The notes beneath the pieces were generated by a model. The model searched no databases, was not told the DNA's origin, and was given only the letters and a program-made list of their open reading frames with translations. Below are positions 12,331 through 64,000 of a stretch of DNA of 64,000 bases, one piece after another. Position numbers and translations under genes: made by a program. This DNA is from Eledone cirrhosa (lineage: Eukaryota): contig OZ024741.1 of assembly GCA_964016885.1 (NCBI GenBank), forward strand, positions 54,498,001 through 54,562,000, in the 5' to 3' direction. Every line of letters starts with the position of its first letter. Positions within the stretch are counted from its first letter, which is position 1.

Positions 12331-12384
12331 ATAGCACCACTGACGATGTTGCAGATGTGCAACGAAAGATTTATGATAAACTAT
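12331..12384 (+). ncRNA. Minimal type I hammerhead ribozyme in PLE terminal repeat
   Basis: CTGACGA (12340) - stem II GTTGCA/TGCAAC - GAAA (12364) - near-palindromic short stem III - TTA; stem I weak. Confidence 0.6.
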
Positions 12385-14802
12385 ATATATGTGTTTGTGT
12401 CTATATTGTATCTGTATTATTCATGACCGTCGGTCAGTCAATGGCAACATTGAGGACCGAGTATATTAGATTTGCCTATCTGCTGGGTCATTTCTATGTT
12501 TAGATATTATTCTAATTTCTATGTTGTCTATGTTACCGTCATGTTGTTGTCTAGCATGTTCGTATAGTACTGACCCGTTTTTTCGTCCTTTTAGTTCCCC
12601 CCAGTGTTGGTCTATCCTTTTACCTATGCTACGAGCTGTCTCACCTATGTATGTTGTTGTCATGTTTCTGCAAGTACCCTCTGTACATCTTATGCTATAG
12701 ACTACGTTTCTAGTTTTACAGTTTATCCGGGGGTTCACCTTACATATGATACATTTCCTATTGGTACAGTGGGTTTTCTTAAAAGGGTAGGTTTTGCTGA
12801 TCAGGGATTTTATGGTGGTTCCTGGCTTTTCTACCACCTTTATTTTTAAGTGGGTCTTTCCCAGGGCCTTTCTACACTGGTTAGCTAATTTCCCTCCAGG
12901 GGTGGCGTCCACAAACATGACACTCTGGTATCTCTGGTTGTCGTACCATGAGGTGGCTTTCCCTATCTTATGTCTAGCCCTATCTAAGCTATTCCATGAT
13001 TTGCTCCTGTATAATGGGCAAATTCCTTTCATGTCCAGTTCTATGAGGGTCTTATACTTTTCCATGGCTCCTTCGTATACTCTGACTGTCTCTTTGGTTG
13101 TAGCCAGAGAACTGCATGCGGTTGATGAAGTGTTGGATGTGTCTTTCCATTTCTGTTGGGTCGCACATGCGGGACGCATTCTTCATCACTCGTACCAAAT
13201 CTGCGATCAGAATATTAAACTTAGCACTACTGGACATTGCTGAGTTTTTCAGTATCAGGTATTTGGAGGCCATGGGTTTAGCATAGTGTGAGTGGAGAAT
13301 TTGGGCTTTCTCGTCTATAGTGTTAATCCAGAGTTCTGTGTCTAATACAGGTAGTCTATTGTTAGGGTGTTTGGAAGGGAAGTCGGTAGTTACAGTTATA
13401 CTCTGGTGTATGGAATTAGCTATCTGCTGGATGCTTTCCATCGTGCTACGTTCTAAATCAAACTTGTTAGTGCTCTCTAGTGGGGGTGTTCTTATAACTA
13501 TGTTGATATCGTCTACATAACGAGAGTACATGATGAGGTCCATGGAGCTTTCATTAAGGAGATCTTTAAGTCTCCTTTCCCACCATACCATGAAAAGGTT
13601 GGCAACATCACCAGCTATGCTGACGCCGATGGCTGCTCCCTCATTTTGGGTGTAGATTTTCTCATTGAACTTAAATATGTGGCCCTTTAGGGTAGTTTTG
13701 ATACTAGCCCCTATTGCATGTGCGACCATTTATCTTACCTGATCATTGTTTTGGGGGGTCCGTATAGCTTTGGTCCACCCAATCCACCTTCCCATGGGAG
13801 TCTTTTTCATCAACCGCATGCAGTTCTCTGGCTACAACCAAAGAGACAGAGTCAGAGTATACGAAGGAGCCATGGAAAAGTATAAGAAACTCATAGAACT
13901 GGACATGAAAGGAATTTGCCCATTATACAGGAGCAAATCATGGAATAGCTTAGATAGCGTTAGACATAAGATAGGGAAAGCCACCTCATGGTACGACAAC
14001 CAGAGATACCAGAGTGTCATGTTTGTGGACGCCACCCCTGGAGGGAAATTAGCTAACCAGTGTAGAAAGGCTCTGAGAAAGACCCACTTAAAAATAAAGG
14101 TGGTAGAAAAGCCAGGAACCACCATAAAATCCCTGATCAGCAAAACCTACCCTTTTAAGAAAACCCACTCTACCAATAGGAAATGTATCATATGTAAGGT
14201 GAACCCCGGATAAACTGTAAAACTAGAAACGTAGTCTATAGCATAAGATGTACAGAGGGTACTTGCAGAAACATGACAACAACATACATAGGTGAGACAG
14301 CTCGTAGCATAGGTGAAAGGATAGACCAACACAGGGGGGAACTAAAAGGACGAAAAAACGGGTCAGTACTATACGAAAATGCTAGACAACAACATGACGG
14401 TAACATAGACAACATAGAAATTAGAATAATATCTAAATATAGAAATGACCCAGCAGATAGGCAAATCAGAGAGGCCAGTGAAATAGAAATTAGAAGACCA
14501 AAGCTAAACAGAAAGAATGAATGGAATAACAACAACACCCAAACAAACAACACTGACCTAAGAGAAGTATAAATAAGTAAATAAAATAAGATAAATAAAT
14601 ATAAATACATACACAAGCACAATAACAACAAGCACATAAACACACACTAGTCACCCATCACACAGCAAACATAACACTATACACACACGCAAACGCATGC
14701 GCAAAGAAGACAAAATAAAATAAACAAACAAGCAAATAAATAAATAAATATATAGACAGACTGAATACAAATGGCGTAGACATACAACACAACAGGAGGA
14801 AA

Positions 14803-14860
14803 ATATAACAACACTGACGATGTTGCAGATGTGCAGCGAAAGATTTATGATAAACTATAT
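14803..14860 (+). ncRNA. Minimal type I hammerhead ribozyme (second copy)
   Basis: CTGACGA (14814), stem II GTTGCA/TGCAGC (G-U keeps pairing), GAAA (14838). Confidence 0.55.
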
Positions 14861-15047
14861 ATATGTGTCTGTGCTTATATTGTATCTGTATTATTTTTGA
14901 CCGTCGGTCAGTCAATGGCAACATTGAGGACCGAGTAAGTTAGATTACCGATATAAAAGACAGCGAGAAGCGAAAACCAACCAAACAATGAGTGTGTTCT
15001 GTTATTAATTCTGGCAATATTACACAAATATAACCCTCCCCAAGTAT

Positions 15048-20381: not shown

Positions 20382-20423
20382 GTCACTGAAGAGGTCACAG
20401 AATGTGTGACGAAAGAACTTTGA
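20382..20423 (+). ncRNA. Minimal type I hammerhead (5' terminal-repeat copy)
   Basis: GTCA-CTGAAGA (20386)-GGTCACA/TGTGAC-GAAA (20411)-GAAC-TT-TGA. Confidence 0.55.
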
Positions 20424-20469
20424 AAATATATGAACAACCGTCCGGTTGTGGAACCAACCAACCAACTGC

Positions 20470-22615
20470 AAATGGCTTGCGTAAGCTCATGCAGCGCTCG
20501 CGTAATGGAGAGATAGCATGCTTTCCAACAGACAAGTCTGGCAGAATGTCGGTTGACAGCCTGCCAAACTACATCCAGGCAATGCAACCCCACATCACTA
20601 ACACAAGAGAAGTAACACCACAGGAGCATGAGGATAGAGAAAAAGCCCTCAATGCCCATATGGTGATGTGGACGAATATAATGCAGCCCAACAAAAGGAC
20701 TGCCAACAACTTCCAGGCCTGGAACAATGACGTCCGGCGTTGTATGGGCTTCGAAAAGACCATAAAACGGGTAGTGACCCTGTCACGGGACCACCAACAT
20801 GGCCAGTCTGTGGAGCTAACATTGCTAGTAACTACAGACTGTCCTACTTCCTCTCCCTGATCATACACCCCATCATTGAAATGTCCCCAGATGTATGTGA
20901 CAGCATGGAGGACCTCCTCAGCAGAATCGGCGAGAGTAACCGATCTAGGGACCTAACAAACTGCATAATAGGTAGTATGGATGTTGTGTCCCTGTATCCA
21001 TCTATTGACGTGGATTTTGCTGTGGAGAAATGCGTAGAAATGATCAGTGAGAGCGATGTTGAGTTCCGTGGAATTGATACCAGTGAGCTGGGACTCCTAC
21101 TTAAGCTTACCTATAGTAATAATTACATAGACACATATGACCTACAAGACCAGCAAGAGGCAGACCACCTACCATTACCTCAATGGCCAAGAAAACCCAC
21201 ACAGATAGAGGGAACGGGTGGACCAGAGCCATACGGACACCCGAAAACCACGATGAACTGAAGAAAATGATTGCACACGGGGTGGGGGCCAGCAGAAAAT
21301 TAACCCTTAAGGAACATATGTTCAAATTTAATGGAAAAACCTATTCCCAAGAGGAAGGAGCAGCCATTGGTGTTAGCATTGCAGGCGACATAGCTAACTT
21401 ATTCATGGTATGGTGGGACAGTAGACTTAAACTTAAACTTAAAGAAAATTAGAAGACCCCTTAACCCTGATAATGTACTCCCGCTACGTTGATGATATAA
21501 ACATCGTAGTTAAAACACCCCCACTAGAGAACAGTCAGGAATTAGAGAAAAACACAATGGAAAGCATCCAGCAAATAGCTAACTCCATCCACCAGAGTAT
21601 TAGAGTTACTATAGACTACCCAAGTAAACACCCCAACCATCGATTACCTGTACTAGACACAGAGCTCTGGTTAGATACCATTAATAACAAAAAACAAATC
21701 CTCCATTCCCATTATGCCAAACCCATGACTTCCAAATATCTGATCCACCGAAACTCAGCTGTTTCGGACCATACCAAAATCAACATACTGATTGCGGATT
21801 TGGTACGGGTGATGAGAAACGTGTCCCGCATGTGCAACCCCGAAGAACTAGAGAGACACATACAACACTTCATCCACCGTATGCAGTTCTCTGGTTACAA
21901 TCGGAGAGATAAAATCAGAGTGTATAGAGGAGCCAGAACCAAATGGGAAAAAATGGTAAATAATGACACAAATGGGACCTGCCCCTTGCATAGGAGCAAA
22001 TTTTGGAATAGAATAGAAAGAACTAGGAATAAGGCTAATAGAACAAATTCATGGTATGATAGCAATAAATACCAGAGTGTAATGTTCATCGATACAACCC
22101 CTAGAGGTGAATTAGCTTACAAATTTAGAAGGGCCCTAGATAAAAATAAACTCAATATTAACATAGTAGAAAGACCAGGTACCTCCGTAAAATCACTTAT
22201 TAGCAAGACATACCCTTTTCAAAGACCCCCCTGTATAGATAAGAATAGTATAACCTGTAAATTAAGCCCCCATATTAACTGTAAAACTAGAAATGTAGTA
22301 TATAGCATAAGATGTACTGAAGGACAATGTAGAGATAAAAATATAGTGTACATAGGTGAGACAGCTCGTAGTGTAGGGGAACGGATAAATGAACACTGGC
22401 GAGACCTTCAACATAGTAAAGAATCATCTGTACTCTACCAACATGCTAAAATAGAACATAAGGGTAAATTAGAGAACATAGAAATAAAAATAGAATCTAC
22501 ACACAGAAAAGACGCAATGTTTAGACAAATCACAGAGGCAATAAACATAAAAGAATTACAACCAAAATTAAATAGAAAATATGAGTGGAACAGCAACATC
22601 ACAACTTACAATTAA
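20470..22615 (+). pseudogene. PLE polyprotein (RT + Cys-rich linker + GIY-YIG endonuclease), frameshifted
   Basis: PTDKSGR, YGLRKDHK, GSMDVVSLYPSID, GAAIGVSIAGDIANLFM, YSRYVDD, LPVLD, NVVYSIRC..YIGETARSVGERINEH..RQITEAINI..PKLN across four ORFs; 21473-22615 is open for 380 aa. Confidence 0.9.
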
Positions 22616-25279: not shown

Positions 25280-28200
25280 AATTTTACTGTACCATTAATG
25301 GATTGTACTCGTAATTTCCTAACTAGTTGTGTTCTTTCTGTTCTGTGAAGCCCAGCTTCTCAAGATTTGTGTTGAGGCAGTTACTAACAAATTCCAGTGC
25401 CCCAATAATCACAGGTATAAATCTGAAGATAAAATTAGAGTGGAGTATCTGCAGATTTCTCCTTAGTTCTACATATATATTATCCTTTTCGTTAATCTTT
25501 AATATTATATTGGCATCTGCTGGGCAGCTAACTTCCACCACTATGCATGTCTTCTTTTCGCTGTCCCATATATCTGGTCTCTTATGCTTGCATTTTATTT
25601 GGGTTTTACTGGAACATGCTACCAGCACTCATTCATATTATGCATGTACATGTCTTCCACATTGCTGTAGCTTTTAATGTGTTTATTGTCGAAGCTATCT
25701 TTTCTACGGATTGCATTGTACAGTGTTTTGGCCACTTCCTCATGCCTCATAGGTAGATAGTACCGTGATGACATCTTTGGACAGCTGCTTATAACATGGG
25801 TGACATCTTTAATGTTAATTCTGCAGAGTCTGCACTTGTTGTCACATCTAGATGATTTGACTGCATCCCTATCTCTTTTGTGAATCAGGTATTTCGTGTT
25901 GATTTCATGTTCTTAGATTGAAAAAGCATATCCTTCAAATATTTGTTCGTCCCAGATAGACTACTTTGTTTATATATATTACTCTCACTCTGGAGCTTCC
26001 TGGCAACATATCCATGCACGATTTTTTGCTGATAAGCATGCAGTTTATCATCCATTGATTCGCTGTGGTATTGATGGGCGATTTCCCTGGGTTTGAGTTT
26101 TTGATTAACATGCAGGGAGTATCTTTCAAGAGTTCCTTCCCAACTCTCATGATCTTATGTCTCATGCGGACAGACTTGCTCAATAGATGGGCTCCTACGC
26201 TTGGAGGTTCGTAAATGTTGTCGGAGGGATATGATGCGCCATTCAAATACTGTCTGGACTGATGTTAGGCCTCTGCCTCCCTGCTTACGTTTCAAGTAGA
26301 GCTGGTCTATGTCACTGTTGATGTGGATATTTCCGTTGTTGTTTGGAATTTTTCAAGTTTTGACATCAGCTGCTCGGATTTCGTCTATCGTCCACTCGAG
26401 TATTCCAAACGTTGGTGTTAGGACAGGCACAGCAAACACACTGTAAGCCACTGTCTTATTTTGCTTAGACCATATTTTTCTAAATCGTTTTTTGCGCAGA
26501 GAGTTCCGATGACCAGATCTTTCTTAATCGGGTGTAGTATTCCCTGGTTACGCGTTCCTTATTACAGATACCATTATAGGATATGTTCTCATCTATCCCC
26601 AGGTATCTGTAGCAGTCCTCATCAGATATTGGTGAAACAGTTAGGCCATTGATGACAATGTTGCTAGATTGGGTTGTTTTTCCCCGCTTTACAGTCGTAT
26701 ATGTGCATTTATCTTGGGCAAACTCCGTTTCTATATCCATTGAGAATGTTGTTACCAGGTCATATTTTTTCTTGATTCCATTTATGTTCTTGGCATAAAG
26801 TTTCGGGTCATCCACCTTGAAATTATGTGTTAAGTTCGTAATTCTGTCCTCCTGTGAGCCAATGATGTATCCCTCACATTTCTTGAGCAGAAAGGACAAG
26901 GGGTTTAATGACAAGATAAATAATATCACAGAAAGACTGTCTCCTTGAAATATACCCCTGCGATATTTTATTTTATCAGTGAAAATAGAGTCCTCCCTCT
27001 CTGTCTTTAACCTTCGGATAGTAGCCCAAGAAAAAGACAGCCTCTCTATGGCTCTGATAATAAGGTCTGGGATTTTAGGAAGTCGGAGGGCCTCTCTCGT
27101 CCGAGAGTGGGGAACAGAATCAAATGCTTTCCTGTAGTCCAGCCAGACTGTAGTCATATTTCTCCTAAGTTATCGAACCTCCGACATCGCAGTTTTGTTA
27201 ATTAGGAGTTGTTCAGCACACCCTCAAACACCTGTCTTTCCAGCTGCTTGTTCATCCATAATGATGTCATTACTTTTGCCGGGATCTTGGAGAAATAGGT
27301 TGAGAAGGCTGTATACATCTTATACATCATATTCTGGCATGCAATGGGTCGGTAGTTTTTTGCCAAGTGGGTGTTTTTGTTCTTGGTGACCAGTATTGTT
27401 TGTGTTAATGTCAACCATTCTGGTATAAGTGTATCTCTCTTGAGAGGTTGTTGGTCGAGGTCGATAAGATACATTCGATAGAATATCAGTTTTTTATACA
27501 AGTAGCCGACAATGAAGTCTCTTCCTGAAGTTTTCTCATCTTGGAGTTATCCTATCACAGTCTCAAGAGTATCCTCATTTATTTCATATGTTTTTGTTGT
27601 GGTGTAGGGGCAATAGTTCTTTTGGATTTCTCTTAACCACACTGTTTCTTGGTTGAAATTCTTCTTTTCACCCCATATTTTTGTCCCGAAGGAATCTATG
27701 TCTTTCTGGCATGGGGCCTCAGAGACACTTATTATTTTGCCCTTCATATCTCTATAGACTGATGTTTGGTCTCGTCTGAATCCTTTATTAAGCACATTTC
27801 TTTCATCTACCCTCCTCGGGTATCGACGTTTCTCGCAGACAGCTCTCAAGTTTTGTTTGAGGGTGATCAGCTTTGTTTTTGTTTGTTTTTGATTGCAAGT
27901 AAGAGGCATTGTCACATATCCTATAGTTTTCCATAGGTCAGCAATGTTTTTTTTTCTATTTTGGTTATATATGACGGTATCTTTTGTGGTGCTTTTTTCT
28001 TGTTAATATCTCTGCTATCACCAAGATAATGCTTCACTGTCGTTGCTAGGGCATATACGCAGGCGTTGATTTGCCAAAATGTGGGGGTTTTAATTCGTCG
28101 TAAATATTCATCCCCTATTTCGTTAATAGCACGGAAGATTTCATTATTTGGTTTGCTGTGCTTTAATATTGTTGTTTTATTACCTTCAGCAAGAGAACTG
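25280..28200 (-). mobile_element. Degenerate R4/Dong-like non-LTR retrotransposon (RT + CCHC + restriction-like endonuclease)
   Basis: NYRPIAC, WLDYRKAFDSVPH, RGIFQGDSLSVILF, YRYLGI; CRLC..THVISSC zinc knuckle (~25840-25780); RPDI..IVVEVSCP and PVIIGAL endonuclease motifs (25323-25628). Confidence 0.85.
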
Positions 28201-28324
28201 TTTATACAAGAATTAATTTCTTAAAGGAAATGTTTAGACCGAGCTGAGGATCCGAATAAGGTGAAACATTTGTTCTTGGTATGGTGAACTAACTGTTGTG
28301 GAACTACTTCTATATATATTTATA

Positions 28325-28826
28325 TCCCACTCTCTCATCTACGAGAGAGTCCACACGATTATACCGTCTTCCAGTTAGCGCACACTATCAGGCTTAAGTC
28401 TATCAGGTTTGCGATAACTTACTATCATATTTTTTCACGGTTATACATTTGCCTGTTTCTTTGTCCTGTGTCTTCCCACGATGGGATCTGTTCACCTGTT
28501 CTTTTCTCCTCTTTTCCCTTCTCTCTTTCTTCCTTTCTCCTTACCACCTTTGTTCTTCTTCCTCTTCTCCCTCTTTTTCCTTACTTTTTCTCTCCTTTTT
28601 TTCTCTCCCTTTTGTCTTCTTTTCCTCCTGACCCTTTGATTAATAAAAGACCTTGGGCGCATCCGATCGCTACAGATGTCCTGTAATTCAGCGCCGAAAC
28701 ATCTGGATCGAGGATTTTTACAGCTGACGAAGGGTTCTTTCTTCTTTTCTCCTTTTGTTCCGTCCTAACTACCATCCTAAACCTTGTTTTTAGTAACCAC
28801 ACAGCTCCTTTCGTTTCGTATCATTA
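28325..28826 (+). mobile_element. Pyrimidine-rich ~500-bp non-coding insertion in (TA)n carrying a hammerhead-like motif (likely PLE terminal-repeat derived)
   Basis: Bounded by TA runs at ~28310-28325 and ~28826-28837; composition like the PLE 3' regions elsewhere in the window. Confidence 0.5.
28661..28735 (+). ncRNA. Candidate non-circularly permuted hammerhead ribozyme
   Basis: CAGATG-TC|CTGTAA ... CC-GAAA-CATCTG ... TTACAG-CTGACGA-AGG; stem III CAGATG/CATCTG, stem I CTGTAA/TTACAG, extension ATCC-GATC/GATC-GGAT. Confidence 0.7.
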
Positions 28827-29410
28827 TATATATATACTCTCCAGCCCCGCTGATAAGTCGGGAATTGCGCGATCAACAATCGATAATAGATGGAAAATAA
28901 ATTTTTTCAGAGTGGCAACTATATAGTCGATTGTACAGCAGGAATATACAACGTGATGAAATGAGACAAAGAGCAACAATAATAAATAATTAAAGGGAAA
29001 TCTCCTTTGACCGGCAACTGTCTCCGCCGGGTCTGGTTAAATTACAATATGCACCTTTGTAGTTGTTGAACATGCAATTAGATATTATCCAATAGGAGGC
29101 TTGCATTAGGCAGACATGTGAAACGTTGCAATGAACCTGGCGGCAGAGTTCTTCTCTGGAAATATGAAATGTATGCAAACGAGTTGGGAAACCAAACGTC
29201 ATACTGAAAGATTTTTCTTGAAGTGGACAGCGGATTGAAGGTAATGAAACATCAGTCGCCAATGCTGGACAGGGTGAGCTGGAGGTAGACCTTAGTCATG
29301 GCATTGGTAACGAATGTATTAACGAAGGAGTATATTTGTATGAATTTAACACATTTACGAAGCAGATTTTCAGAGAGAGAGTGAGAGGACTCTGCTCCCA
29401 CTATCCATCC

Positions 29411-37520: not shown

Positions 37521-38689
37521 TCTAGAGGGTCTTTACCTTTACCCCATTGTTATAGATTTGGTCATTGAGGTTGTTGTGGGTGTTTATGTGACTGATATAG
37601 TGGTTTTGATGTGGTTTTGTGTTTAATTGTCGTTTTAGTTGTTACCGTTGTTGTCCTTCTTGCTGGTGTGGCTTTTTATGATGTTTATATTATTGGGATT
37701 GTTTTTGTAAATTTGAATATGGTTTTAAGGCTGTTGCTATAGCTGTTGTGTTGTGGTTGTTGCTATATTTTTGTTGTTGTGTGGTGATTGTTGTTATAGT
37801 TTTTGAGGGGTTTCGGGTTGTTGCTATACGTAATTGTTAGTGCTGTGGTTGCTGATGTGTTTGTTGCTATAGTTGTTGTTGAGGTTGTGATTGTTGTTAT
37901 TGCGATTAATATTATTGTTGATGAGCGGCGGCTTTGAGTTATTGTTATAGTTGTTGTTGCTGTTGGTGGTGTTGTTATTTTAGCGTTGACTTCTAGCTCG
38001 GATGGTACAGACTCCTCTACTACTAGAGTTGTTGACATATACACTACCACCAATACCACAAATACAATATTTATAACAAAATCTTGGTGTATGGTCCACC
38101 ATTATAACCACCACACCACCACTACTACACCAGCACTACACCACCATCACAACTACAACAATAATATCTACAAAAGCAACATTTTGATGTATGATTAACC
38201 ACCTTTATCACCAACTCCACACAACCTCAACCACCTATATCACAACACCCACAACAACCCCATCAACAAAAGCAACATATTCACCGCCACTATCATAACA
38301 TCTACCTATACCTATACTACCACCACCACAACAATCACAACTTCCACCTATAACATGACAACTACAACAACCATATCAACGAAAGCAACATCTTCAACAT
38401 TACTATCATACCTCCTATCTACACCTATACTAGCACCATCACCAGAATAACATGTACAAAAGCCTCATCTTTACCAATGTACCATCACCACTATTACTAT
38501 CTCCCCCTATACCACCACAAATATGTCAACCACATCAGCAAAACAAATTCTTGACGTTTCACTACATCAATAAATGCCACCACCATCACTACGACCAAAT
38601 TGACATCTACAAACGCAACATCTCGATGTATGTATCGCCACCCCTATCAGCACCTCCTCGTATACCACCACAACCACAACAAGCATATA

Positions 38690-40111
38690 AAACCAGCGTA
38701 TTCACCACAGAACCAACGTATTCACCACAAAACCAACGTATTCACCACAGAACCAGCGTATTCACCACAAAACCAGCGTATTCACCACAAAACCAGCGTA
38801 TTCACCACAAAACCAACGTGTTCACCACAAAACCAACGTATTCACCACAAAACCAACGTATTCACCACAAAATCAGCGTATTCACCACAAAACCAGCGTA
38901 TTCACCACAAAACCAGCGTATTCACCACAAAACCAACGTATTCACCACAAAACCAGCGTATTCACCACAAAACCAGCGTATTCACCACAAAACCAGCGTA
39001 TTCACCACAAAACCAACGTATTCACCACAAAACCAGCGTATTCACCACAAAACCAACGTGTTCACCACAAAACCAACGTATTCACCACAAAACCAACGTA
39101 TTCACCACAAAACCAACGTATTCACCACAAAACCAACGTGTTCAGCACAAAACCAACGCGTTCACCACAAAACCAGCGTATTCACCACAAAACCAACGTA
39201 TTCACCACAAAACCAACGTATTCACCACAAAACCAGCGTATTCACCACAAAACCAACGTATTCACCACAAAACCAACGTATTCACCACAAAACCACCGTA
39301 TTCACCACAAAACCACCGTATTTACCACAAAACCAACGTGTTCACCACAAAACCAACGTATTCACCACAAAACCAACGTTATTCACCACAAAACGAACGT
39401 GTTCACCACAAAACCAGCGTATTCACCACAAAACCAACGTATTCACCACAAAACCAACGTATTCACCACAAAACCAACGTGTTCACCACAAAACCAACGT
39501 ATTCACCACAAAACCAACGTTATTCACCACAAAACGAACGTGTTCACCACAAAACCAGCGTGTTCACCACAAAACCAACGTATTCACCACAAAACCAACG
39601 TATTCACCACAAAACCAACGTGTTCACCACAAAACCAACGTATTCACCACAAAACCAGCGTATTCACCACAAAACCAGCGTGTTCACCACAAAACCAACG
39701 TATTCACCACAAAACCAACGTGTTCACCACAAAACCAACGTATTCACCACAAAACCAACGTATTCACCACAAAACCAACGTATTCACCACAAAACCAGCG
39801 TATTCACCACAAAACCAGCGTATTCACCACAAAACCAACGTATTCACCACAAAACCAACGTATTCACCACAAAACCAGCGTATTCACCACAAAACCAACG
39901 TATTCACCACAAAACCAGCGTATTCATCACAAAACCAACGTATTCACCACAAAACCAACGTATTCACCACAAAACCAACGTTATTCACCACAAAACGAAC
40001 GTGTTCACCACAAAACCAACGTGTTCACCACAAAACCAACGTATTCACCACAAAACCAGCGTATTCACCACAAAACCAACGTATTCACCACAAAACCAAC
40101 GTATTCACCAC
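38690..40111. repeat. 20-bp minisatellite (TTCACCACAAAACCA[A/G]CGT[A/G])n, about 70 copies
   Basis: Exact 20-bp register in the sequence rows; three 21-bp variants shift the frame. Confidence 0.97.
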
Positions 40112-40359
40112 AACAATCTCAACCTCTACCTACACCACACTACCATCACCAAAAATAACACGACTTCACCATTTATACCATCATTACCGCTATCCACGCC
40201 CCCACCACCAATAACACCATCCTTGTGCAATCCCCAACTATACCCGCCCCACCACTACAAAATCTATGGCAACATCTTGCTGTACCAACTAAAACCGCAG
40301 ACAAGATCACCTAGACCAGAAATAACAAGGGTAAGAATGTGGAAAAAAATCCTCCAATA

Positions 40360-43901: not shown

Positions 43902-44903
43902 TCAGCATCTGTTGTTGAGGGGGCACGTAGATCCATCAGGGCAGTTACAACTCCTGGTCGACTCTCCACTATTTTCTAGGTTGTTTCTTCCATAGGGGTT
44001 GAGTTTTTTGTTGTTTGAGGAGACGATGTTTTGTGCAAAGTTAGGTGTGGTGCTGTAGGATAGCTTGATAGTGTCTTTGTTGATTATGTTGTGGTAACGG
44101 TGTTGTGGTGGAAAGTGTTTTTCGAGGAGCCTAAAGAAGATTTTCCCGATAGGTGTTGCCACCTCGGCATTGTGGGGAGGATTGAACCACGTTACGTGGC
44201 GTAGGCAGCGGCGTCGCCTGCAGGTTCCGTAAAGGGAAGCTGGATAAAAGGATATTTCCTCCCAGAAGCCACTCCGTTTGAGGGCCTGGTTGTAATGAGG
44301 CGCATGTTCGTCGAATATCTGCTCATTAGCTGACAGACGAGATATGCGGATGGAGATGTTTTTAACCAGATTATTGCTGATGTTTCTAGGATGGTTAGAG
44401 CGGCGCTGGATGCAGTGCAGGTTGTCGTTTGGTTTCCTGTATGGGTAGTACGGACCATTTTCGAGATTGAGGGTAACGTCCAGGAAATTTACTCGGATTA
44501 GGGACGTTTGTAGGGTGATTTTAAATATCCAGTCCCGGAAAAAGTTGATAAGTTGTTTACGGACCCGGTCTGTACTACTGGGGTTGTACCCTTTGAGGGT
44601 AAGGAGCCCATCGTCTCGGTACAATCCACCGCCGAATGCGGGAAACATTTCGTTGAGTTTAAATAGTAGGAATAATCCTATAAGATCGGTGACCTCGGCT
44701 GAATCAGTCGCGTCCATGCTGACGTCGAAGGGGGAGTCGGAACCTCTCTTTATCCATTTGGAGTTGTTGAAAAGTAGGACTGTCTTCCTGGCGTGGACAA
44801 TGATATTTCTTTCCTGGTCGGTGATGGGCGCGAGTGTTTCGGCAAAGTCTAAGGCGGCCGTAAGGAGCAGTAAGGTAATAGATGCATAGTAACTATATGT
44901 CAA
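43902..44903 (-). pseudogene. PLE RT/thumb/Cys-linker ORF fragment (333 aa)
   Basis: YRDD catalytic motif; reading frame continues past a TGA into the GIY-YIG domain. Confidence 0.85.
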
Positions 44904-46726
44904 ACTGGATGAATTGTGTCCCGTTTGTCCTCAATATTCCTGAAACACAAGATTACTTCCTGGGTGCTAACCCATAGGCTATTCTCGCGTTTTGCTTAAC
45001 TTTTGGTATAACTCGGTCTAAGATGTTTTTACTGATTCTCCCTATGTCCGACTTCGTCGGTTTATAAGCCTGATGGATGGTTTGCGGTCGAAGTCGGATT
45101 TGTGGTCCTTCAGTGTGAAGTAGGCAGTCCGTGGGTCGAGGCGTTCAGTGCGGTCTGCGACCCCGAGATTAGAGGTAATTTGTTGTCCCTTTAGATTTAT
45201 GTCCTTAGCAGGCGACGCCGCCGCCCACGCCATGTAACGTGGTTCAATCCTCCCCACAATGCAGAAGTGGCAACACCTATCGGGAAAATTTTCTTTAGGC
45301 TCCTCGAAAAACACTTTCCACCACAACACCGTTACCACAACATAATCAACAAAGACACTATCAAGCTATCCTACAGCACCACACCTAACTTCGCACAAAA
45401 CATCGTCTCCTCAAACAACAAAAAGCTCAACCCCTATGGAAGAAACCTAGAAATTAGTGGAGTGCCGACCAGGAGTTGTAACTGCCCTGATAGATTTACG
45501 TGCTCCCTCAATAACAGATGCCGAGAACGTAATGTGATCTACTAGTGCAACGTGAGGACGGACACCTCCAACAAAGCTTATATAGGATTAACTGCTTGTG
45601 ACTTTAAGACCCGGCTCTACCAACACCGGAATACGTTCCGAAACCCGGTCCGGCGACATGTCACCACACTTTCGAGCCATATCTGGGACCTCCAAGATAA
45701 TAATATAACTTACTATCTCACTTGGAGCTTACTGCCCAGAGCTAACTCTTACACGGGAGGACGCCGTCCATGTAACTTATGCTCGGAGGAAACATTACAA
45801 ATGCTGTTTAGGAAGGATCAACTCCTAAACAAAGAAGATGAACTGGTAACTGCATGCAAACACAGATTTCGGAAGACTTACCTCTCCCTCAAACCCCCTA
45901 ACGATCCGGGTGGGTAGACAAGGGCTGAAACACCCCACTCGCCGAATAAGATAGGGAAAACCACAACTTACATAGGTAGATATACCCCTTTTCTTTTCCT
46001 CTATGTTTTCTTCTTCCCAATGTCTCCTCCTATCACTTCTTTCCACCACCGAACTTCTTCCTCGTTCGTTCCTTTGTTTTTTTCCTCCCTTTCGCCTACC
46101 CCGAGGCAGCCCATCAGGCCTCTTTAGCCTCAGTACCCCCACCCCAGTAACTTACAGATAGCATTCGCCGATTACGTTATACTAACTAATCATAGCAGCT
46201 ATGTTAGATCCCAAAGATGTGGTATTAATTTTTAATACCCAATTCTAAATGTTCAATAATTCTCATCTAGCAACCCATTCTATAGCATTGGCCGAAAATG
46301 CAGCACCAACTAAATATAGCAGCTGTGGTAGACACCTTAGCTTTTGTTTTATTTCACTTCTCACTTTCCACTCTTACATTCTGATATATCTGTCTCTCAT
46401 TTTTTATTGTATTCTTTTTTATTATATTTTTTCTTTGTCCCCTAATTCTCATTTGATTTACCTTTTCTATAACGTCCCTCCTCGATTTTCTAAAGAAACC
46501 TTTTTTCGACTACCTCCCCTGGCCTACTTTCATACACATCCTTAGAATTTGCCGTGTCGATTTCTCCTTCAACGCTTGACCGGACCGACTCTACCCACTT
46601 ACCTATTGTTCTACAGGCAAGTTCAGACACCCCCACCCCGCGCCCACTGCCATGATATACTTTTCTGTGTCTGCTACAAATTTTGACCAATCCTCTTGAC
46701 AACTACAATCTTCCTATATAAGGAAG

Positions 46727-48473: not shown

Positions 48474-51400
48474 TAAACCCTTTTTGTTGTTACTCTAGCG
48501 TCCCCCTTTATTTACGTGTCCCAACGACTTTTTTTAGCCGTTGTTCGCACGAACCTGAGGCATATGGCCCTTAAAGCGATGAAATGCCGAGGACGGTTGG
48601 AGGGTCACTGATGAAGGACTCACTTTTTCATATGTATCCCATTTGCAACGCCGCAGCTCCATTATTATCATCATATTTACACATATTACTTTTCCATGCT
48701 GCCTGTCTGTCTGTTCCTTGTATCTTTACCACTTCTAGCAGTCTCTCTCCCTCTCTGTTACCCTCTCCTCAACTTTCACTCACTCATTCTCTGTCACTAC
48801 CTCTCCTCCTCCTCTTTCCTCCTCCTCCTTCAAGTTTGACCTGTGTGTAATTCTTTTCTCGCGCAGTCTTGACCGAGCTGGTATGGAATTTTTTTTTCTC
48901 TCTCTCTTTCGTCTGTGACTTCACAAAACTTGCGTTTACCGATTTCGCAGACCAGACCACCTTATCTTCTTCTTCTTCTTCTTCTTCTTCTTCTTCTTCT
49001 TCTTCTTCTTCTTCTTCTTCTTCTTCTTCTTCCTCTTCTCTCCTTTCTCTGTGTCTCTCTCTCTCTCTTTTTTCCCCCCGTCAAACTTGGGCGAAATTCT
49101 TTCCTTGCTCACATTTCTACCAGGTTCGATGGTCTTTCGTCTCTTGTTCACGATTTCACAGAGTTTATATTCATAGAGATCTGGGACTTGTCTATTTCTA
49201 CTCACTTTCTGTTGCTTAAACCCTTTTTGTTGTTACTCTAGCGTCCCCCTTTATTTACGTGTCCCAACGACTTTTTTTAGCCGTTGTTCGCACCAACCTG
49301 AGGCATATGGCCCTTAAAGCGATGAAATGCCGAGGACGGTTGGAGGGTCACTGATGAAGGACTCACTTTTTCATATGTATCCCATTTGCAACGCCGCAGC
49401 TCCATTATTATCATCATATTTACACATATTACTTTTCCATGCTGCCTGTCTGTCTGTTCCTTGTATCTTTACCACTTCTAGCAGTCTCTCTCCCTCTCTG
49501 TTACCCTCTCCTCAACTTTCACTCACTCATTCTCTGTCACTACCTCTCCTCCTCCTCTTTCCTCCTCCTCCTTCAAGTTTGACCTGTGTGTAATTCTTTT
49601 CTCGCGCAGTCTTGACCGAGCTGGTATGGAATTTTTTTTCTCTCTCTCTTTCGTCTGTGACTTCACAAAACTTGCGTTTACCGATTTCGCAGACCAGACC
49701 ACCTTATCTTCTTCTTCTTCTTCTTCTTCTTCTTCTTCTTCTTCTTCTTCTTCTTCTTCTTCTTCTTCTTCTTCTTCTTCTTCCTCTTCTCTCCTTTCTC
49801 TGTGTCTCTCTCTCTCTCTTTTTTCCCCCCGTCAAACTTGGGCGAAATTCTTTCCTTGCTCACATTTCTACCAGGTTCGATGGTCTTTCGTCTCTTGTTC
49901 ACGATTTCACAGAGTTTATATTCATAGAGATCTGGGAGTTGTCTATTTCTACTCACTTTCTGTTGCTTAAACCCTTTTTGTTGTTACTCTAGCGTCCCCC
50001 TTTATTTACGTGTCCCAACGACTTTTTTTAGCCGTTGTTCGCACCAACCTGAGGCATATGGCCCTTAAAGCGATGAAATGCCGAGGACGGTTGGAGGGTC
50101 ACTGATGAAGGACTCACTTTTTCATATGTATCCCATTTGCAACGCCGCAGCTCCATTATTATCATCATATTTACACATATTACTTTTCCATGCTGCCTGT
50201 CTGTCTGTTCCTTGTATCTTTACCACTTCTAGCAGTCTCTCTCCCTCTCTGTTACCCTCTCCTCAACTTTCACTCACTCATTCTCTGTCACTACCTCTCC
50301 TCCTCTTTCCTTCTCCTCCTTCAAGTTTGACCTGTGTGTAATTCTTTTCTCGCGCAGTCTTGACCGAGCTGGTATGGAATTTTTTTTCTCTCTCTCTTTC
50401 GTCTGTGACTTCACAAAACTTGCGTTTACCGATTTCGCAGACCAGACCACCTTATCTTCTTCTTCTTCTTCTTCTTCTTCTTCTTCTTCTTCTTCTTCTT
50501 CTTCTTCTTTTTCTTCTTCTTCTTCTCTCCTTTCTCTGTGTCTCTCTCTCTCTCTTTTTTCCCCCCGTCAAACTTGGGCGAAATTCTTTCCTTGCTCACA
50601 TTTCTACCAGGTTCGATGGTCTTTCGTCTCTTGTTCACGATTTCACAGAGTTTATATTCATAGAGATCTGGGACTTGTCTATTTCTACTCACTTTCCGTT
50701 GCTTAAACCCTTTTTGTTGTTACTCTAGCGTCCCCCTTTATTTACGTGTCCCGACGACTTTTTTTAGCCGTTGTTCGCACCAACCTGAGGCATATGGCCC
50801 TTAAAGCGATGAAATGCCGAGGACAGTTGGAGGGTCACTGATGAAGGACTCGCTTTTTCATATGTATCCCATTTGCAACGCCGCAGCTCCATTATTATCA
50901 TCATATTTACACATATTACTTTTCCATGCTGCCTGTCTGTCTGTTCCTTGTATCTTTACCACTTCTAGCAGTCTCTCTCCCTCTCTGTTACCCTCTCCTC
51001 AACTTTCACTCACTCATTCTCTGTCACTACCTCTCCTCCTCCTCTTTCCTCCTCCTCCTTCAAGTTTGACCTGTGTGTAATTCTTTTCTCGCGCAGCCTT
51101 GACCGAGCTGGTATGGAATTATTTTTCTCTCTCTCTTTCGTCTGTGACTTCACAAAACTTGCGTTTACCGATTTCGCAGACCAGACCACCTTATCTTCTT
51201 CTTCTTCTTCTTCTTCTTCTTCTTCTTCTTCTTCTTCTTCTTCTTCTTCTTCTCTCCTTTCTATGTGTCTCTCTCTCTCTCTTTTTTCCCCCCGTCAAAC
51301 TTGGGCGAAATTCTTTCCTTGCTCACATTTCTACCAGGTTCGATGGTCTTTCGTCTCTTGTTCACGATTTCACAGAGTTTATATTCATAGAGATCTGGGA

Positions 51401-51958
51401 CTTGTCTATTTCTACTCACTTTCCGTTGCTTAAACCCTTTTTGTTGTTACTCTAGCGTCCCCCTTTATTTACGTGTCCCAACGACTTTTTTTAGCCGTTG
51501 TTCGCACCAACCTGAGGCATATGGCCCTTAAAGCGATGAAATGCCGAGGACGGTTGGAGGGTCACTGATGAAGGACTCACTTTTTCATATGTATCCCATT
51601 TGCAACGCCGCAGCTCCATTATTATCATCATATTTACACAAATTACTTTTCCATGCTGCCTGTCTGTCTGTTCCTTGTATCTTTACCACTTCTAGCAGTC
51701 TCTCTCCCTCTCTGTTACCCTCTCCTCAACTTTCACTCACTCATTCTCTGTCACTACACTCCTCCTCCTCTTTCCTCCTCCTCCTTCAAGTTTGACCTGT
51801 GTGTAATTCTTTTCTCGCGCAGTCTTGACCGAGCTGGTATGGAATTTTTTTTCTCTCTCTCTTTCGTCTGTGACTTCACAAAACTTGCGTTTACCGATTT
51901 CGCAGACCAGACCACCTTATCTTCTTCTTCTTCTTCTTCTTCTTCTTCTTCTTCTTCT

Positions 51959-51997
<39 letters not shown>

Positions 51998-54900
51998 TCT
52001 CTCCTTTCTCTGTGTCTCTCTCTCTCTCTTTTTTCCCCCCCGTCAAACTTGGGCGAAATTCTTTCCTTGCTCACATTTCTACCAGGTTCGATGGTCTTTC
52101 GTCTCTTGTTCACGATTTCACAGAGTTTATATTCATAGAGATCTGGGACTTGTCTATTTCTACTCACTTTCCGTTGCTTAAACCCTTTTTGTTGTTACTC
52201 TAGCGTCCCCCTTTATTTGCGTGTCCCAACGACTTTTTTTAGCCGTTGTTCGCACCAACCTGAGGCATATGGCCCTTAAAGCGATGAAATGCCGAGGACG
52301 GTTGGAGGGTCACTGATGAAGGACTCACTTTTTCATATGTATCCCATTTGCAACGCCGCAGCTCCATTATTATCATCATATTTACACATATTATTTTTCC
52401 ATGCTGCCTGTCTATCTGTTCCTTGTATCTTTACCACTTCTAGCAGTCTCTCTCCCTCTCTGTTACCCTCTCCTCAACTTTCACTCACTCATTCTCTGTC
52501 ACTACCTCTCCTCCTCCTCTTTCCTCCTCCTCCTTCAAGTTTGACCTGCGTGTAATTCTTTTCTCGCGCAGTCTTGACCGAGCTGGTATGGAATTTTTTT
52601 TCTCTCTCTCTTTCGTCTGTGACTTCACAAATCTTGCGTTTACCGATTTCGCAGACCAGACCACCTTATCTTCTTCTTCTTCTTCTTCTTCTTCTTCTTC
52701 TTCTTCTTCTTCTTCTTCTTTTTCTTCTTCTTCTTCTCTCCTTTCTCTGTGTCTCTCTCTCTCTCTTTTTTCCCCCCGTCAAACTTGGGCGAAATTCTTT
52801 CCTTGCTCACATTTCTACCAGGTTCGATGGTCTTTCGTCTCTTGTTCACGATTTCACAGAGTTTATATTCATAGAGATCTGGGACTTGTCTATTTCTACT
52901 CACTTTCCGTTGCTTAAACCCTTTTTGTTGTTACTCTAGCGTCCCCCTTTATTTACGTGTCCCAACGACTTTTTTTAGCCGTTGTTCGCACCAACCTGAG
53001 GCATATGGCCCTTAAAGCGATGAAATGCCGAGGACGGTTGGAGGGTCACTGATGAAGGACTCACTTTTTCATATGTATCCCATTTGCAACGCCGCAGCTC
53101 CATTATAATCATCATATTTACACATATTACTTTTCCATGCTGCCTGTCTGTCTGTTCCTTGTATCTTTACCACTTCTAGCAGTCTCTCTCCCTCTCTGTT
53201 ACCCTCTCCTCAACTTTCACTCACTCATTCTCTGTCACTGCCTCTCCTCCTCCTCTTTCCTTCTCCTCCTTCAAGTTTGACCTGCGTGTAATTCTTTTCT
53301 CGCGCAGTCTTGACCGAGCTGGTATGGAATTTTTTTTCTCTCTCTCTTTCGTCTGTGACTTCACAAAACTTGCGTTTACCGATTTCGCAGACCAGACCAC
53401 CTTATCTTCTTCTTCTTCTTCTTCTTCTTCTTCTTCTTCTTCTTCTTCTTCTTCTTCTTCTTCTTCTTCTCTCCTTTCTCTGTGTCTCTCTCTCTCTCTT
53501 TTTTCCCCCCGTCAAACTTGGGCGAAATTCTTTCCTTGCTCACATTTCTACCAGGTTCGATGGTCTTTCGTCTCTTGTTCACGATTTCACAGAGTTTATA
53601 TTCATAGAGATCTGGGACTTGTCTATTTCTACTCACTTTCCGTTGCTTAAACCCTTTTTGTTGTTACTCTAGCGTCCCCCTTTATTTACGTGTCCCGACG
53701 ACTTTTTTTAGCCGTTGTTCGCACCAACCTGAGGCATATGGCCCTTAAAGCGATGAAATGCCGAGGACGGTTGGAGGGTCACTGATGAAGGACTCGCTTT
53801 TTCATATGTATCCCATTTGCAACGCCGCAGCTCCATTATTATCATCATATTTACACATATTACTTTTCCATGCTGCCTGTCTGTCTGTTCCTTGTATCTT
53901 TACCACTTCTAGCAGTCTCTCTCCCTCTCTGTTACCCTCTCCTCAACTTTCACTCACTCATTCTCTGTCACTACCTCTCCTCCTCCTCTTTCCTCCTCCT
54001 CCTTCAAGTTTGACCTGTGTGTAATTCTTTTCTCGCGCAGTCTTGACCGAGCTGGTATGGAATTTTTTTTTCTCTCTCTCTTTCGTCTGTGACTTCACAA
54101 AACTTGCGTTTACCGATTTCGCAGACCAGACCACCTTATCTTCTTCTTCTTCTTCTTCTTCTTCTTCTTCTTCTTCTTCTTCTTCTTCTTCTTCTTCTTC
54201 TTCCTCTTCTCTCCTTTCTCTGTGTCTCTCTCTCTCTCTTTTTTCCCCCCGTCAAACTTGGGCGAAATTCTTTCCTTGCTCACATTTCTACCAGGTTCGA
54301 TGGTCTTTCGTCTCTTGTTCACGATTTCACAGAGTTTATATTCATAGAGATCTGGGACTTGTCTATTTCTACTCACTTTCCGTTGCTTAAACCCTTTTTG
54401 TTGTTACTCTAGCGTCCCCCTTTATTTGCGTGTCCCAACGACTTTTTTTAGCCGTTGTTCGCACCAACCTGAGGCATATGGCCCTTAAAGCGATGAAATG
54501 CCGAGGACGGTTGGAGGGTCACTGATGAAGGACTCACTTTTTCATATGTATCCCATTTGCAACGCCGCAGTTCCATTATTATCATCATATTTACACATAT
54601 TACTTTTCCATGCTGCCTGTCTATCTGTTCCTTGTATCTTTACCACTTCTAGCAGTCTCTCTCCCTCTCTGTTACCCTCTCCTCAACTTTCACTCACTCA
54701 TTCTCTGTCACTACCTCTCCTCCTCCTCTTTCCTCCTCCTCCTTCAAGTTTGACCTGTGTGTAATTCTTTTCTCGCGCAGTCTTGACCGAGCTGGTATGG
54801 AATTTTTTTTCTCTCTCTCTTTCGTCTGTGACTTCACAAAACTTGCGTTTACCGATTTCGCAGACCAGACCACCTTATCTTCTTCTTCTTCTTCTTCTTC

Positions 54901-57900
54901 TTCTTCTTCTTCTTCTTCTTCTTCCTCTTCTCTCCTTTCTCTGTGTCTCTCTCTCTCTCTTTTTTCCCCCCGTCAAACTTGGGCGAAATTCTTTCCTTGC
55001 TCACATTTCTACCAGGTTCGATGGTCTTTCGTCTCTTGTTCACGATTTCACAGAGTTTATATTCATAGAGATCTGGGAGTTGTCTATTTCTACTCACTTT
55101 CCGTTGCTTAAACCCTTTTTGTTGTTACTCTAGCGTCCCCCTTTATTTACGTGTCCCAACGACTTTTTTTAGCCGTTGTTCGCACCAACCTGAGGCATAT
55201 GGCCCTTAAAGCGATGAAATGCCGAGGACGGTTGGAGGGTCACTGATGAAGGACTCACTTTTTCATATGTATCCCATTTGCAACGCCGCAGCTCCATTAT
55301 AATCATCATATTTACACATATTACTTTTTCATGCTGCCTGTCTGTCTGTTCCATGTATCTTTACCACTTCTAGCAGTCTCTCTCCCTCTCTGTTACCCTC
55401 TCCTCAACTTTCACTCACTCATTCTCTGTCACTACCTCTCCTCCTCCTCTTTCCTTCTCCTCCTTCAAGTTTGACCTGTGTGTAATTCTTTTCTCGCGCA
55501 GTCTTGACCGAGCTGGTATGGAATTTTTTTTCTCTCTCTCTTTCGTCTGTGACTTCACAAAACTTGCGTTTACCGATTTCGCAGACCAGACCACCTTATC
55601 TTCTTCTTCTTCTTCTTCTTCTTCTTCTTCTTCTTCTTCTTCTTCTTCTTCCTCTTCTCTCCTTTCTCTGTGTCTCTCTCTCTCTCTTTTTTGCCCCCGT
55701 CAAACTTGGGCGAAATTCTTTCCTTGCTCACATTTCTACCAGGTTCGATGGTCTTTCGTCTCTTGTTCACGATTTCGCAGAGTTTATATTCATAGAGATC
55801 TGGGACTTGTCTATTTCTACTCACTTTCCGTTGCTTAAACCCTTTTTGTTGTTACTCTAGCGTCCCCCTTTATTTACGTGTCCCAACGACTTTTTTTAGC
55901 CGTTGTTCGCACCAACCTGAGGCATATGGCCCTTAAAGCGATGAAATGCCGAGGACGGTTGGAGGGTCACTGATGAAGGACTCACTTTTTCATATGTATC
56001 CCATTTGCAACGCCGCAGCTCCATTATTATCATCATATTTACACATATTACTTTTCCATGCTGCCTGTCTGTCTGTTCCTTGTATCTTTACCACTTCTAG
56101 CAGTCTCTCTCCCTCTCTGTTACCCTCTCCTCAACTTTCACTCACTCATTCTCTGTCACTACACTCCTCCTCCTCTTTCCTCCTCCTCCTTCAAGTTTGA
56201 CCTGTGTGTAATTCTTTTCTCGCGCAGTCTTGACCGAGCTGGTATGGAATTTTTTTTCTCTCTCTCTTTCGTCTGTGACTTCACAAAACTTGCGTTTACC
56301 GATTTCGCAGACCAGACCACCTTATCTTCTTCTTCTTCTTCTTCTTCTTCTTCTTCTTCTTCTTCTTCTTCTAAATCTTCTTCCTCTTCTCTCCTTTCTC
56401 TGTGTCTCTCTCTCTCTCTTTTTTCCCCCCGTCAAACTTGGGCGAAATTCTTTCCTTGCTCACATTTCTACCAGGTTCGATGGTCTTTCGTCTCTTGTTC
56501 ACGATTTCACAGAGTTTATATTCATAGAGATCTGGGACTTGTCTATTTCTACTCACTTTCCGTTGCTTAAACCCTTTTTGTTGTTACTCTAGCGTCCCCC
56601 TTTATTTACGTGTCCCAACGACTTTTTTTAGCCGTTGTTCGCACCAACCTGAGGCATATGGCCCTTAAAGCGATGAAATGCCGAGGACGGTTGGAGGGTC
56701 ACTGATGAAGGACTCACTTTTTCATATGTATCCCATTTGCAACGCCGCAGCTCCATTATTATCATCATATTTACACATATTACTTTTCCATGCTGCCTGT
56801 CTATCTGTTCCTTGTATCTTTACCACTTCTAGCAGTCTCTCTCCCTCTCTGTTACCCTCTCCTCAACTTTCACTCACTCATTCTCTGTCACTACCTCTCC
56901 TCCTCCTCTTTCCTCCTCCTCCTTCAAGTTTGACCTGTGTGTAATTCTTTTCTCGCGCAGTCTTGACCGAGCTGGTATGGAATTTTTTTTCTCTCTCTCT
57001 TTCGTCTGTGACTTCACAAAACTTGCGTTTACCGATTTCGCAGACCAGACCACCTTATCTTCTTCTTCTTCTTCTTCTTCTTCTTCTTCTTCTTCCTCTT
57101 CTCTCCTTTCTCTGTGTCTCTCTCTCTCTCTTTTTTCCCCCCGTCAAACTTGGGCGAAATTCTTTCCTTGCTCACATTTCTACCAGGTTCGATGGTCTTT
57201 CGTCTCTTGTTCACGATTTCACAGAGTTTATATTCATAGAGATCTGGGAGTTGTCTATTTCTACTCACTTTCCGTTGCTTAAACCCTTTTTGTTGTTACT
57301 CTAGCGTCCCCCTTTATTTACGTGTCCCAACGACTTTTTTTAGCCGTTGTTCGCACCAACCTGAGGCATATGGCCCTTAAAGCGATGAAATGCCGAGGAC
57401 GGTTGGAGGGTCACTGATGAAGGACTCACTTTTTCATATGTATCCCATTTGCAACGCCGCAGCTCCATTATACTCATCATATTTACACATATTACTTTTT
57501 CATGCTGCCTGTCTGTCTGTTCCATGTATCTTTACCACTTCTAGCAGTCTCTCTCCCTCTCTGTTACCCTCTCCTCAACTTTCACTCACTCATTCTCTGT
57601 CACTACCTCTCCTCCTCCTCTTTCCTTCTCCTCCTTCAAGTTTGACCTGTGTGTAATTCTTTTCTCGCGCAGTCTTGACCGAGCTGGTATGGAATTTTTT
57701 TTCTCTCTCTCTTTCGTCTGTGACTTCACAAAACTTGCGTTTACCGATTTCGCAGACCAGACCACCTTATCTTCTTCTTCTTCTTCTTCTTCTTCTTCTT
57801 CTTCTTCTTCTTCTTCTTCTTCTTCTTCTTCTTCTTCTTCCTCTTCTCTCCTTTCTCTGTGTCTCTCTCTCTCTCTTTTTTGCCCCCGTCAAACTTGGGC

Positions 57901-63900: not shown

Positions 63901-64000
63901 TTTTTTTAGCCGTTGTTCGCACCAACCTGAGGCATATGGCCCTTAAAGCGATGAAATGCCGAGGACGGTTGGAGGGTCACTGATGAAGGACTCACTTTTT
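48474..64000 (+). repeat. Head-to-tail tandem array of a ~712-751 bp non-coding unit (21 full units + partial), continuing past the window end
   Basis: Landmark ATGCCGAGG recurs at 48584, 49327, 50078, 50814, 51541, 52289, 53025, 53758, 54498, 55219, 55946, 56678, 57390, 58135, 58866, 59600, 60327, 61058, 61780, 62513, 63231, 63956; length variation comes mainly from an internal (TTC)n. Confidence 0.98.
49293..49360 (+). ncRNA. Candidate non-circularly permuted hammerhead ribozyme with kink-turn (representative copy; one per array unit, 22 in window)
   Basis: CCAACC-T-GA-GGCA-TA|TGGCCCT-TAAAGCGAT-GAAA-TGCC-GAG-GA-C-GGTTGG-AGGGTCA-CTGATGA-AGG: stem III GGCA/TGCC, stem I TGGCCCT/AGGGTCA, full core, AUA triplet with predicted cleavage after 49307. 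Confidence 0.7.

Follow-up and report, generated by a model that had tools for sequence, protein, structure and literature searches.

Hammerhead ribozymes can be described by the order of three strand blocks: S (a stem III strand, the NUH triplet, and a stem I strand), G (the 3′ strand of stem II, GAAA, and the other stem III strand), and C (the other stem I strand and CUGANGA). The orders CGS, GSC, and SCG are circular and correspond to types I, II, and III. The S-G-C order was named type SGC by Eckert et al. (2023; PMC10085705), who validated its cleavage at rates of 0.007-0.19 per minute. In that paper, none of the RNAs described is placed in the genome of a known organism, one bacterial GCS candidate excepted, and type CSG is represented by two sequences. 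The paper assumes that CUGANGA and its stem II strand are contiguous, and the SGC descriptor given there requires CUGAUGA(U)G plus at least two further pairs, with an inserted U permitted before G10.1.

Two groups of mobile elements are also relevant. Naiads, Penelope-like elements (PLEs) described by Craig et al. (2021; PMC8557442), prefer (TA)n targets and form partial tandems with tails; they are reported to have no canonical hammerheads, sometimes showing a "core" or "half-core" that fits no descriptor. Non-LTR retrozymes are non-coding; their units, each with a single hammerhead, occur as monomers, dimers, or tandem arrays, and an origin from PLE ends has been proposed (Cervera and de la Peña 2020, PMC7229834; Li et al. 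2026, bioRxiv 10.64898/2026.07.22.740005). Their defining feature is a type I (C-G-S) hammerhead, and the searches for them reportedly used type I models only. No paper that ties non-circular hammerheads to Naiads or to animal repeats turned up in a literature search covering few subscription journals and no preprint supplements.

The locus described here carries an S-G-C motif at the 3′ end of a repeat. Our preferred reading, to which we give a probability of about 0.6, is that it is a ribozyme of Naiad origin whose predicted cut falls after C28680, and that a strand upstream of block S likely provides its stem II.

The motif at 28661-28735

The window is the whole 64,000-nt stretch of the Eledone cirrhosa genome (3.0 Gb) that was analysed, and all features of the motif lie on its + strand. 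Block S (28673-28686) contains the GUC triplet at 28678-28680, and block G (28691-28705) contains GAAA at 28696-28699, both blocks being delimited by descriptor and sequence. Block C (28718-28734, by descriptor and alignment) holds CTGACGA at 28724-28730, followed by AGG at 28731-28733. From the sequence, stem III has 7 bp (28673-28679 with 28699-28705) and stem I has 6 bp (28681-28686 with 28718-28723). The 9-nt linker at 28687-28695, which ends in CC, begins with the 4-nt stem I-to-stem II linker (28687-28690), the most variable part measured (25 of 140 cells off majority). The strand order that the initial annotation had read here, from the GUC strand through the linker, the GAAA strand, and the stem III extension to CTGACGA-AGG, is thus present at those positions with its core (CUGANGA, GAAA, and NUH) intact, but the order itself is already published as type SGC (PMC10085705).

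The stem III extension is formed by 28661-28668 and 28706-28715, with a 4-nt bulge at 28669-28672. Its description as ATCC-GATC/GATC-GGAT with that bulge holds for the pairing, yet it missed a second bulge of 2 nt, and the outer ATCC/GGAT includes two off-majority bases, T28662 and A28711. Farther upstream, an alignment of 35 copies places the family's hairpin at 28630-28652; changes at 28631, 28634, and 28650 make it weaker in this copy.

A descriptor covering all six block orders, with stems I and III required, matched the window only in the S-G-C order; the matches were this motif and 21 units of a tandem array, and none of the circular orders was fitted. Simulation with an order-2 Markov model, run 150 times at 48 kb and scanned on both strands, produced no match, versus one observed. 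Against Rfam the motif had no gathering-level match and nothing relevant up to an E-value of 10. Its nested minimum free energy is unremarkable (z 0.87); stems III and P (the upstream helix described below) compete under nested folding, which cannot display a pseudoknotted fold.

The enclosing repeat, family A

The motif sits in a 5′-truncated, non-coding, Penelope-like repeat copy at 28326-28824 (+), here called family A, as defined by BLAST of 30 loci, end mapping, and tandem spacings. It is flanked on the 5′ side by (TA)n at 28311-28325, the presumed target site, and on the 3′ side by (TA)n at 28825-28836; other copies likewise end in (TA)n there or near 28782. Homology among the 30 loci spans approximately 28330-28836 and is bounded by (TA)n tracts, while other copies reach further 5′, and tandem spacings of ∼780-800 nt give a full unit of ∼790 nt. 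Copies end at ∼28782 or ∼28825, two 3′ ends ∼45 nt apart, and they often form partial tandems or inverted pairs. This anatomy of TA targets, two 3′ ends, partial tandems, and inverted pairs is a hallmark of PLEs, although (TA)n insertion and the partial tandem or inverted structure are common to Naiads and other PLE clades. The element has no ORF with an N-terminal GIY-YIG and a C-terminal reverse transcriptase (RT).

When the genome was searched by BLAST with a 131-nt region, 40 of 1055 candidates were scored and yielded 42 matches, which were 85-91% identical, self apart. Two contig sets carry family A (553 and 545 contigs), but they come from one sample and provide no independent support. 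Within 28620-28790 this copy has nine off-majority positions, including G28734 and none in the core; it is a truncated, mildly decayed insertion that may not be transcribed.

Conservation of the core was measured in 35 copies picked by homology. The 12 core positions had 11 of 420 cells off majority, versus 53 of 817 upstream, 92 of 1705 downstream, and the linker's 25 of 140. The core is modestly better conserved than its flanks, in a family that changes little at most positions. Of the 35 copies, 26 retain the full set of 12 core bases; loss of the core or of its pairing in homologous copies was what the initial annotation had named as evidence against it. The 5′ truncations do not cluster at the predicted cut, a point against the mechanism proposed below: among the first 100 of 387 matches listed, none of 35 family A loci begins at the first base past it, and about five, counted by eye, begin one base later with a T microhomology. 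In the related families B and C a few truncations begin at the cut, but there the AUA triplet mimics a (TA)n target.

Families B and C and covariation

The array that was matched in the window is a family B tandem array at 48474-64000 (+), with ∼30 units of 709-751 nt and one related motif per unit, and it continues ∼5.8 kb beyond the end of the window (L061 1-5806) before terminating in (TA)n. Families B and C, with 905 and 1062 candidates in the genome, share the anatomy of family A. Many identical dispersed family B copies occur elsewhere in the genome, which points to recent amplification although no intact Naiad was found. Family C and its relatives (L067 2055-2420 and L081-L140) are short repeats between (TA)n tracts; they carry the same motif together with a kink-turn signature, and account for much of the larger of two genome-wide pattern counts. 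The first pattern gave 16,470 matches, compared with 25 for its reversed control, and the second, which mixes A-type motifs with some B/C motifs, gave 1,138 compared with 67.

The initial annotation had presented the motif at 28661-28735 as a second hammerhead, independent in sequence of the array motif, and had taken the pair to point to a family of permuted ribozymes. A family of non-circularly permuted hammerhead motifs is supported, with covariation in stems I and III. By BLAST, family A units have no similarity to those of family B, nor to C or the intact PLE described below; the shared four-helix layout and Penelope-like setting suggest that the array motif is probably a relative in layout, neither an independent origin nor independent evidence.

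Covariation was assessed in B/C, where 19 informative rows of 20 have 94% of cells paired, versus 32-47% in slid controls, and 13 of 24 pairs changed on both sides, with compensatory changes across subfamilies in stems I, III, and the extension. In family A, 20 rows have 89% of cells paired, and both partners differ in 5 of 24 pairs. For stem I, covariation is seen in B/C and from one family to another, but not inside A. The rows are mostly matches picked by structure, which favours stems I and III; in the A alignment one row (L145) counts as gaps, and a joint alignment of A with B/C misregistered block S and was left out of the counts.

The extension differs between families. A kink-turn consensus has a 3-nt bulge followed by tandem G-A/A-G pairs. 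This signature, with both GA steps, occurs in 49 of 52 B/C motifs at the site equivalent to 28669-28672 and in none of 41 family A motifs, which instead have a bulge of 4-5 nt on the other strand.

Stem II and the upstream helix

The initial annotation had built stem II from the linker CC and the AGG after CTGACGA and had stated that all helices pair. For stem II this is overstated: at most 2 bp form here, only by skipping A28731, and 1 bp forms in the array motif. By starting at 28661 it also omitted 28656-28660 (+), a strand, here called P, that pairs over 5 bp with 28691-28695 and is the proposed 5′ strand of stem II. At this copy block C could thus give stem II 2 bp and the upstream strand could give it 5 bp; P covaries in families B and C.

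The two candidates were compared in 93 distinct motifs, whose selection used stems I and III and ignored stem II; their triplets are GUC (40), AUA (44), AUC (8), and GUA (1), the descriptor having demanded UH. A P helix of at least four Watson-Crick pairs between the upstream strand and the pre-GAAA strand occurs in 77 of the 93, while a stem II of at least three pairs directly after CUGANGA, the published type SGC arrangement, occurs in two. The P sequence differs between subfamilies in step with its partner (GCGC/GCGC, UCGC/GCGA, and UUGC/GCAA). The helix is short, with a mean per-sequence shuffle p of 0.22, and pairs changed on both sides number one of five in B/C and two of five in A, in few rows. 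The upstream strand is likely, from these comparisons, the better partner for stem II than the bases after CUGACGA, and such a stem II would split a block that Eckert et al. treated as indivisible.

The traits that the motif shares with type SGC (HRIMA-1 and its variant, PMC10085705) are the S-G-C order, the full core, a short stem I-to-stem II linker, and a base that can be inserted after CUGANGA. The published examples come from metatranscriptomes, whereas this motif is in an animal genome, and their stem II comes from block C and is backed by an extra I-II helix, whereas here block C gives one or two pairs, the upstream strand pairs instead, and the stem III extension is bent. The published descriptor would miss this motif because it needs CUGAUGA(U)G and two more pairs. 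The motif appears to be a real variant of a known ribozyme class, and is not filed as strict type SGC since it lacks the stem II of that type.

A strict type SGC reading would keep a stem II of 1-2 bp, G28732-C28695 and G28733-C28694, after one inserted base, with P acting as an auxiliary brace or as an off-switch against re-cutting of re-ligated RNA. The bases after CUGANGA agree with it to a degree: they read N-GGA in 85 of the 93 motifs, in 89 the first G after a 1-nt insertion is able to pair with position 11.1, family B and one C subfamily have a mismatch at 11.1 from the upstream strand, and the published SGC descriptor itself has an inserted U before G10.1. Because of this retained GGA and its pairing capacity, block C may still give the 11.1 pair, and both strands might contribute to stem II. 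Against it, block C offers a stem II of at least three pairs in two of the 93 motifs, and in three published Naiad ends that bear P (Amil, 4_Dst, and 3_Chem), read by eye, C11.1 finds no partner in the three bases that follow CUGANGA but does find one in the upstream strand. These three ends are the best argument for a detached stem II. We consider the strict reading unlikely. At this copy, G28734 is A in 32 of the 33 copies covering that position. A weak, G-U-rich helix of 4-6 bp joining the flanks of block C is possible in family A by eye; none was noticed in B/C.

Relationship to Naiad elements

The likeness of family A to Naiads (PMC8557442) lies in (TA)n targets, tails, and partial tandem and inverted insertions. 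The last ∼600 nt of 30 of the 54 published Naiad consensus sequences (File S5 of that paper) were read by eye, with names inferred from file order. Clearly non-circular hammerheads were read in 14 of these 30 ends, five with an upstream helix P. The five (Obim, Ovul, Amil, 4_Dst, and 3_Chem) belong to Naiads of Octopus (two), a coral, an ostracod, and a hydrozoan, and at their 3′ ends they share the P-S-G-C layout of the motif described here. Six others, probably all nematode, read as clean CSG and have an I-II helix of 9-16 bp (probably Parc, 2_Nbra, 3_Nbra, Hcon, Hpol, and Asuum); in File S5 they precede the entries Naiad-1_Nbra, -3_Nbra, Hcon, Hpol, Asuum, and Lpol. Three read as S-G-C with inserted domains (Ppla, Smim, and 1_Dst). 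Among the remaining ends, Bfor and Esco were partial, 2_Dst and 3_Dst gave no clear call, and twelve showed nothing.

Families B and C resemble the Octopus Naiad end in the sequence directly upstream of the motif. The link of family A to Naiads rests on layout, since BLAST finds nothing similar to it in B, C, or the intact PLE. Two differences from Naiads are that the element here has no ORF and that the nematode Naiads read as type CSG instead. A pattern made from the Octopus Naiad end had no matches in the E. cirrhosa genome. That genome also contained no coding Naiad with an intact motif; none of its 89 RT matches looked intact, short open pieces apart, and its Naiad-like RTs are decayed remnants only, with no intact motif downstream in the 21 loci examined. 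Among the remnants (L191 1198-1899 (-) and L193-L242), one 3′ UTR has a suggestive, degenerate GAAA-to-core arrangement.

On the layouts read in both sets of sequences, the motif likely represents the ribozyme that Naiads were reported to lack, with cutting as its predicted activity. A broader claim, which we favour only slightly over its denial, is that the motif is an active, four-segment topology outside the six published permutations, with stem II from the upstream strand and a two-junction cage, that a single animal genome holds over 17,000 copies of it, and that it is one of several non-circular forms (CSG, SGC, and split-stem) that together would be the missing Naiad ribozymes.

Non-LTR retrozymes resemble the element in their non-coding units, tandem arrangement, and single hammerhead, but the type I hammerhead that defines them was not found in these units, and the order here is non-circular.

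Proposed mechanism and implications

In the proposed fold, stems I and II (P) and the bent extension of stem III would come together at their outer ends in a second, distal junction that would replace the usual contact between loops I and II. Transcripts of tandem copies would be cut to unit lengths, and the 5′ piece, held by P, stem III, and the extension, would favour re-ligation into circles. Reverse transcription of such circles could yield partial tandems and long arrays, with a Penelope-type protein presumably copying these RNAs in trans into (TA)n sites. Genomic copies retain the whole motif and up to ∼100 nt past it, so the template was uncut or re-joined. By our estimate the extension looks short for the distance to the outer ends of stems I and II, and the helices may not all form together.

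This tight monomer geometry would suit a different account, in which the fold is real but acts only between two copies, as a strand-swapped dimer in tandem transcripts, or is chiefly a signal to which the Penelope protein binds, its cutting being weak or dispensable. Minimal hammerheads of PLEs are reportedly dimeric, and partial tandems are frequent here. In a Poseidon element, insertion in vitro was not impaired by mutating the hammerhead (PMC11167929), so cleavage was dispensable at that step, which also counts against the mechanism proposed above. We consider this account improbable, given that all 12 core bases are conserved across subfamilies, that NUH triplets are kept, and that natural SGC monomers cleave (PMC10085705). 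A chance arrangement passively amplified in one repeat, which the initial annotation had rightly thought unlikely, is largely refuted and very improbable: the repeat copies are not independent, family A is conserved at most positions, and Rfam has no match, yet stems I, III, and the extension show compensatory changes across subfamilies, Naiads of several phyla have the same layouts with unrelated stem sequences by eye (PMC8557442), and the simulations gave no match.

If the preferred reading of a Naiad-derived ribozyme is correct, non-circular permuted ribozymes would move from environmental RNA, with hosts unknown, into animal genomes at high copy number. It would also explain the apparent lack of hammerheads in Naiads and undercut the argument that the clade thrives without them. 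The assumption that CUGANGA and stem II are contiguous would be broken, and current descriptors would undercount hammerheads and retrozymes.

Other elements in and beside the window

Canonical-order minimal hammerhead cores occur at 12340-12400 and 14814-14874 (+), each with CUGACGA, an inserted U, a 6-bp stem II hairpin, and GAAA. They sit at the 3′ ends of PLE fragments with a C-terminal GIY-YIG, so that two wiring types are present in one window. Just upstream of the window, an open frame of ∼1130 aa (L067 4990-8391 (-)), 64-73% identical to these fragments, has a canonical-order core at its 3′ end and is of the intact PLE type; its protein is a candidate mobilising protein. Pfam returned no family for any of the three PLE-like proteins submitted. 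Palindromic junctions with a C-G-S-order core at three further loci (L019, L079, and L188) are probably inverted ends of another PLE family. The stretches at 26480-28002 (-), 20390-22615 (+), and 43902-45917 (+) hold what we take to be broken non-LTR reverse transcriptase fragments adjoining the element and two broken PLE-like ORFs. A 20-bp tandem array at 38689-40113 contains 71 copies at 94% identity.
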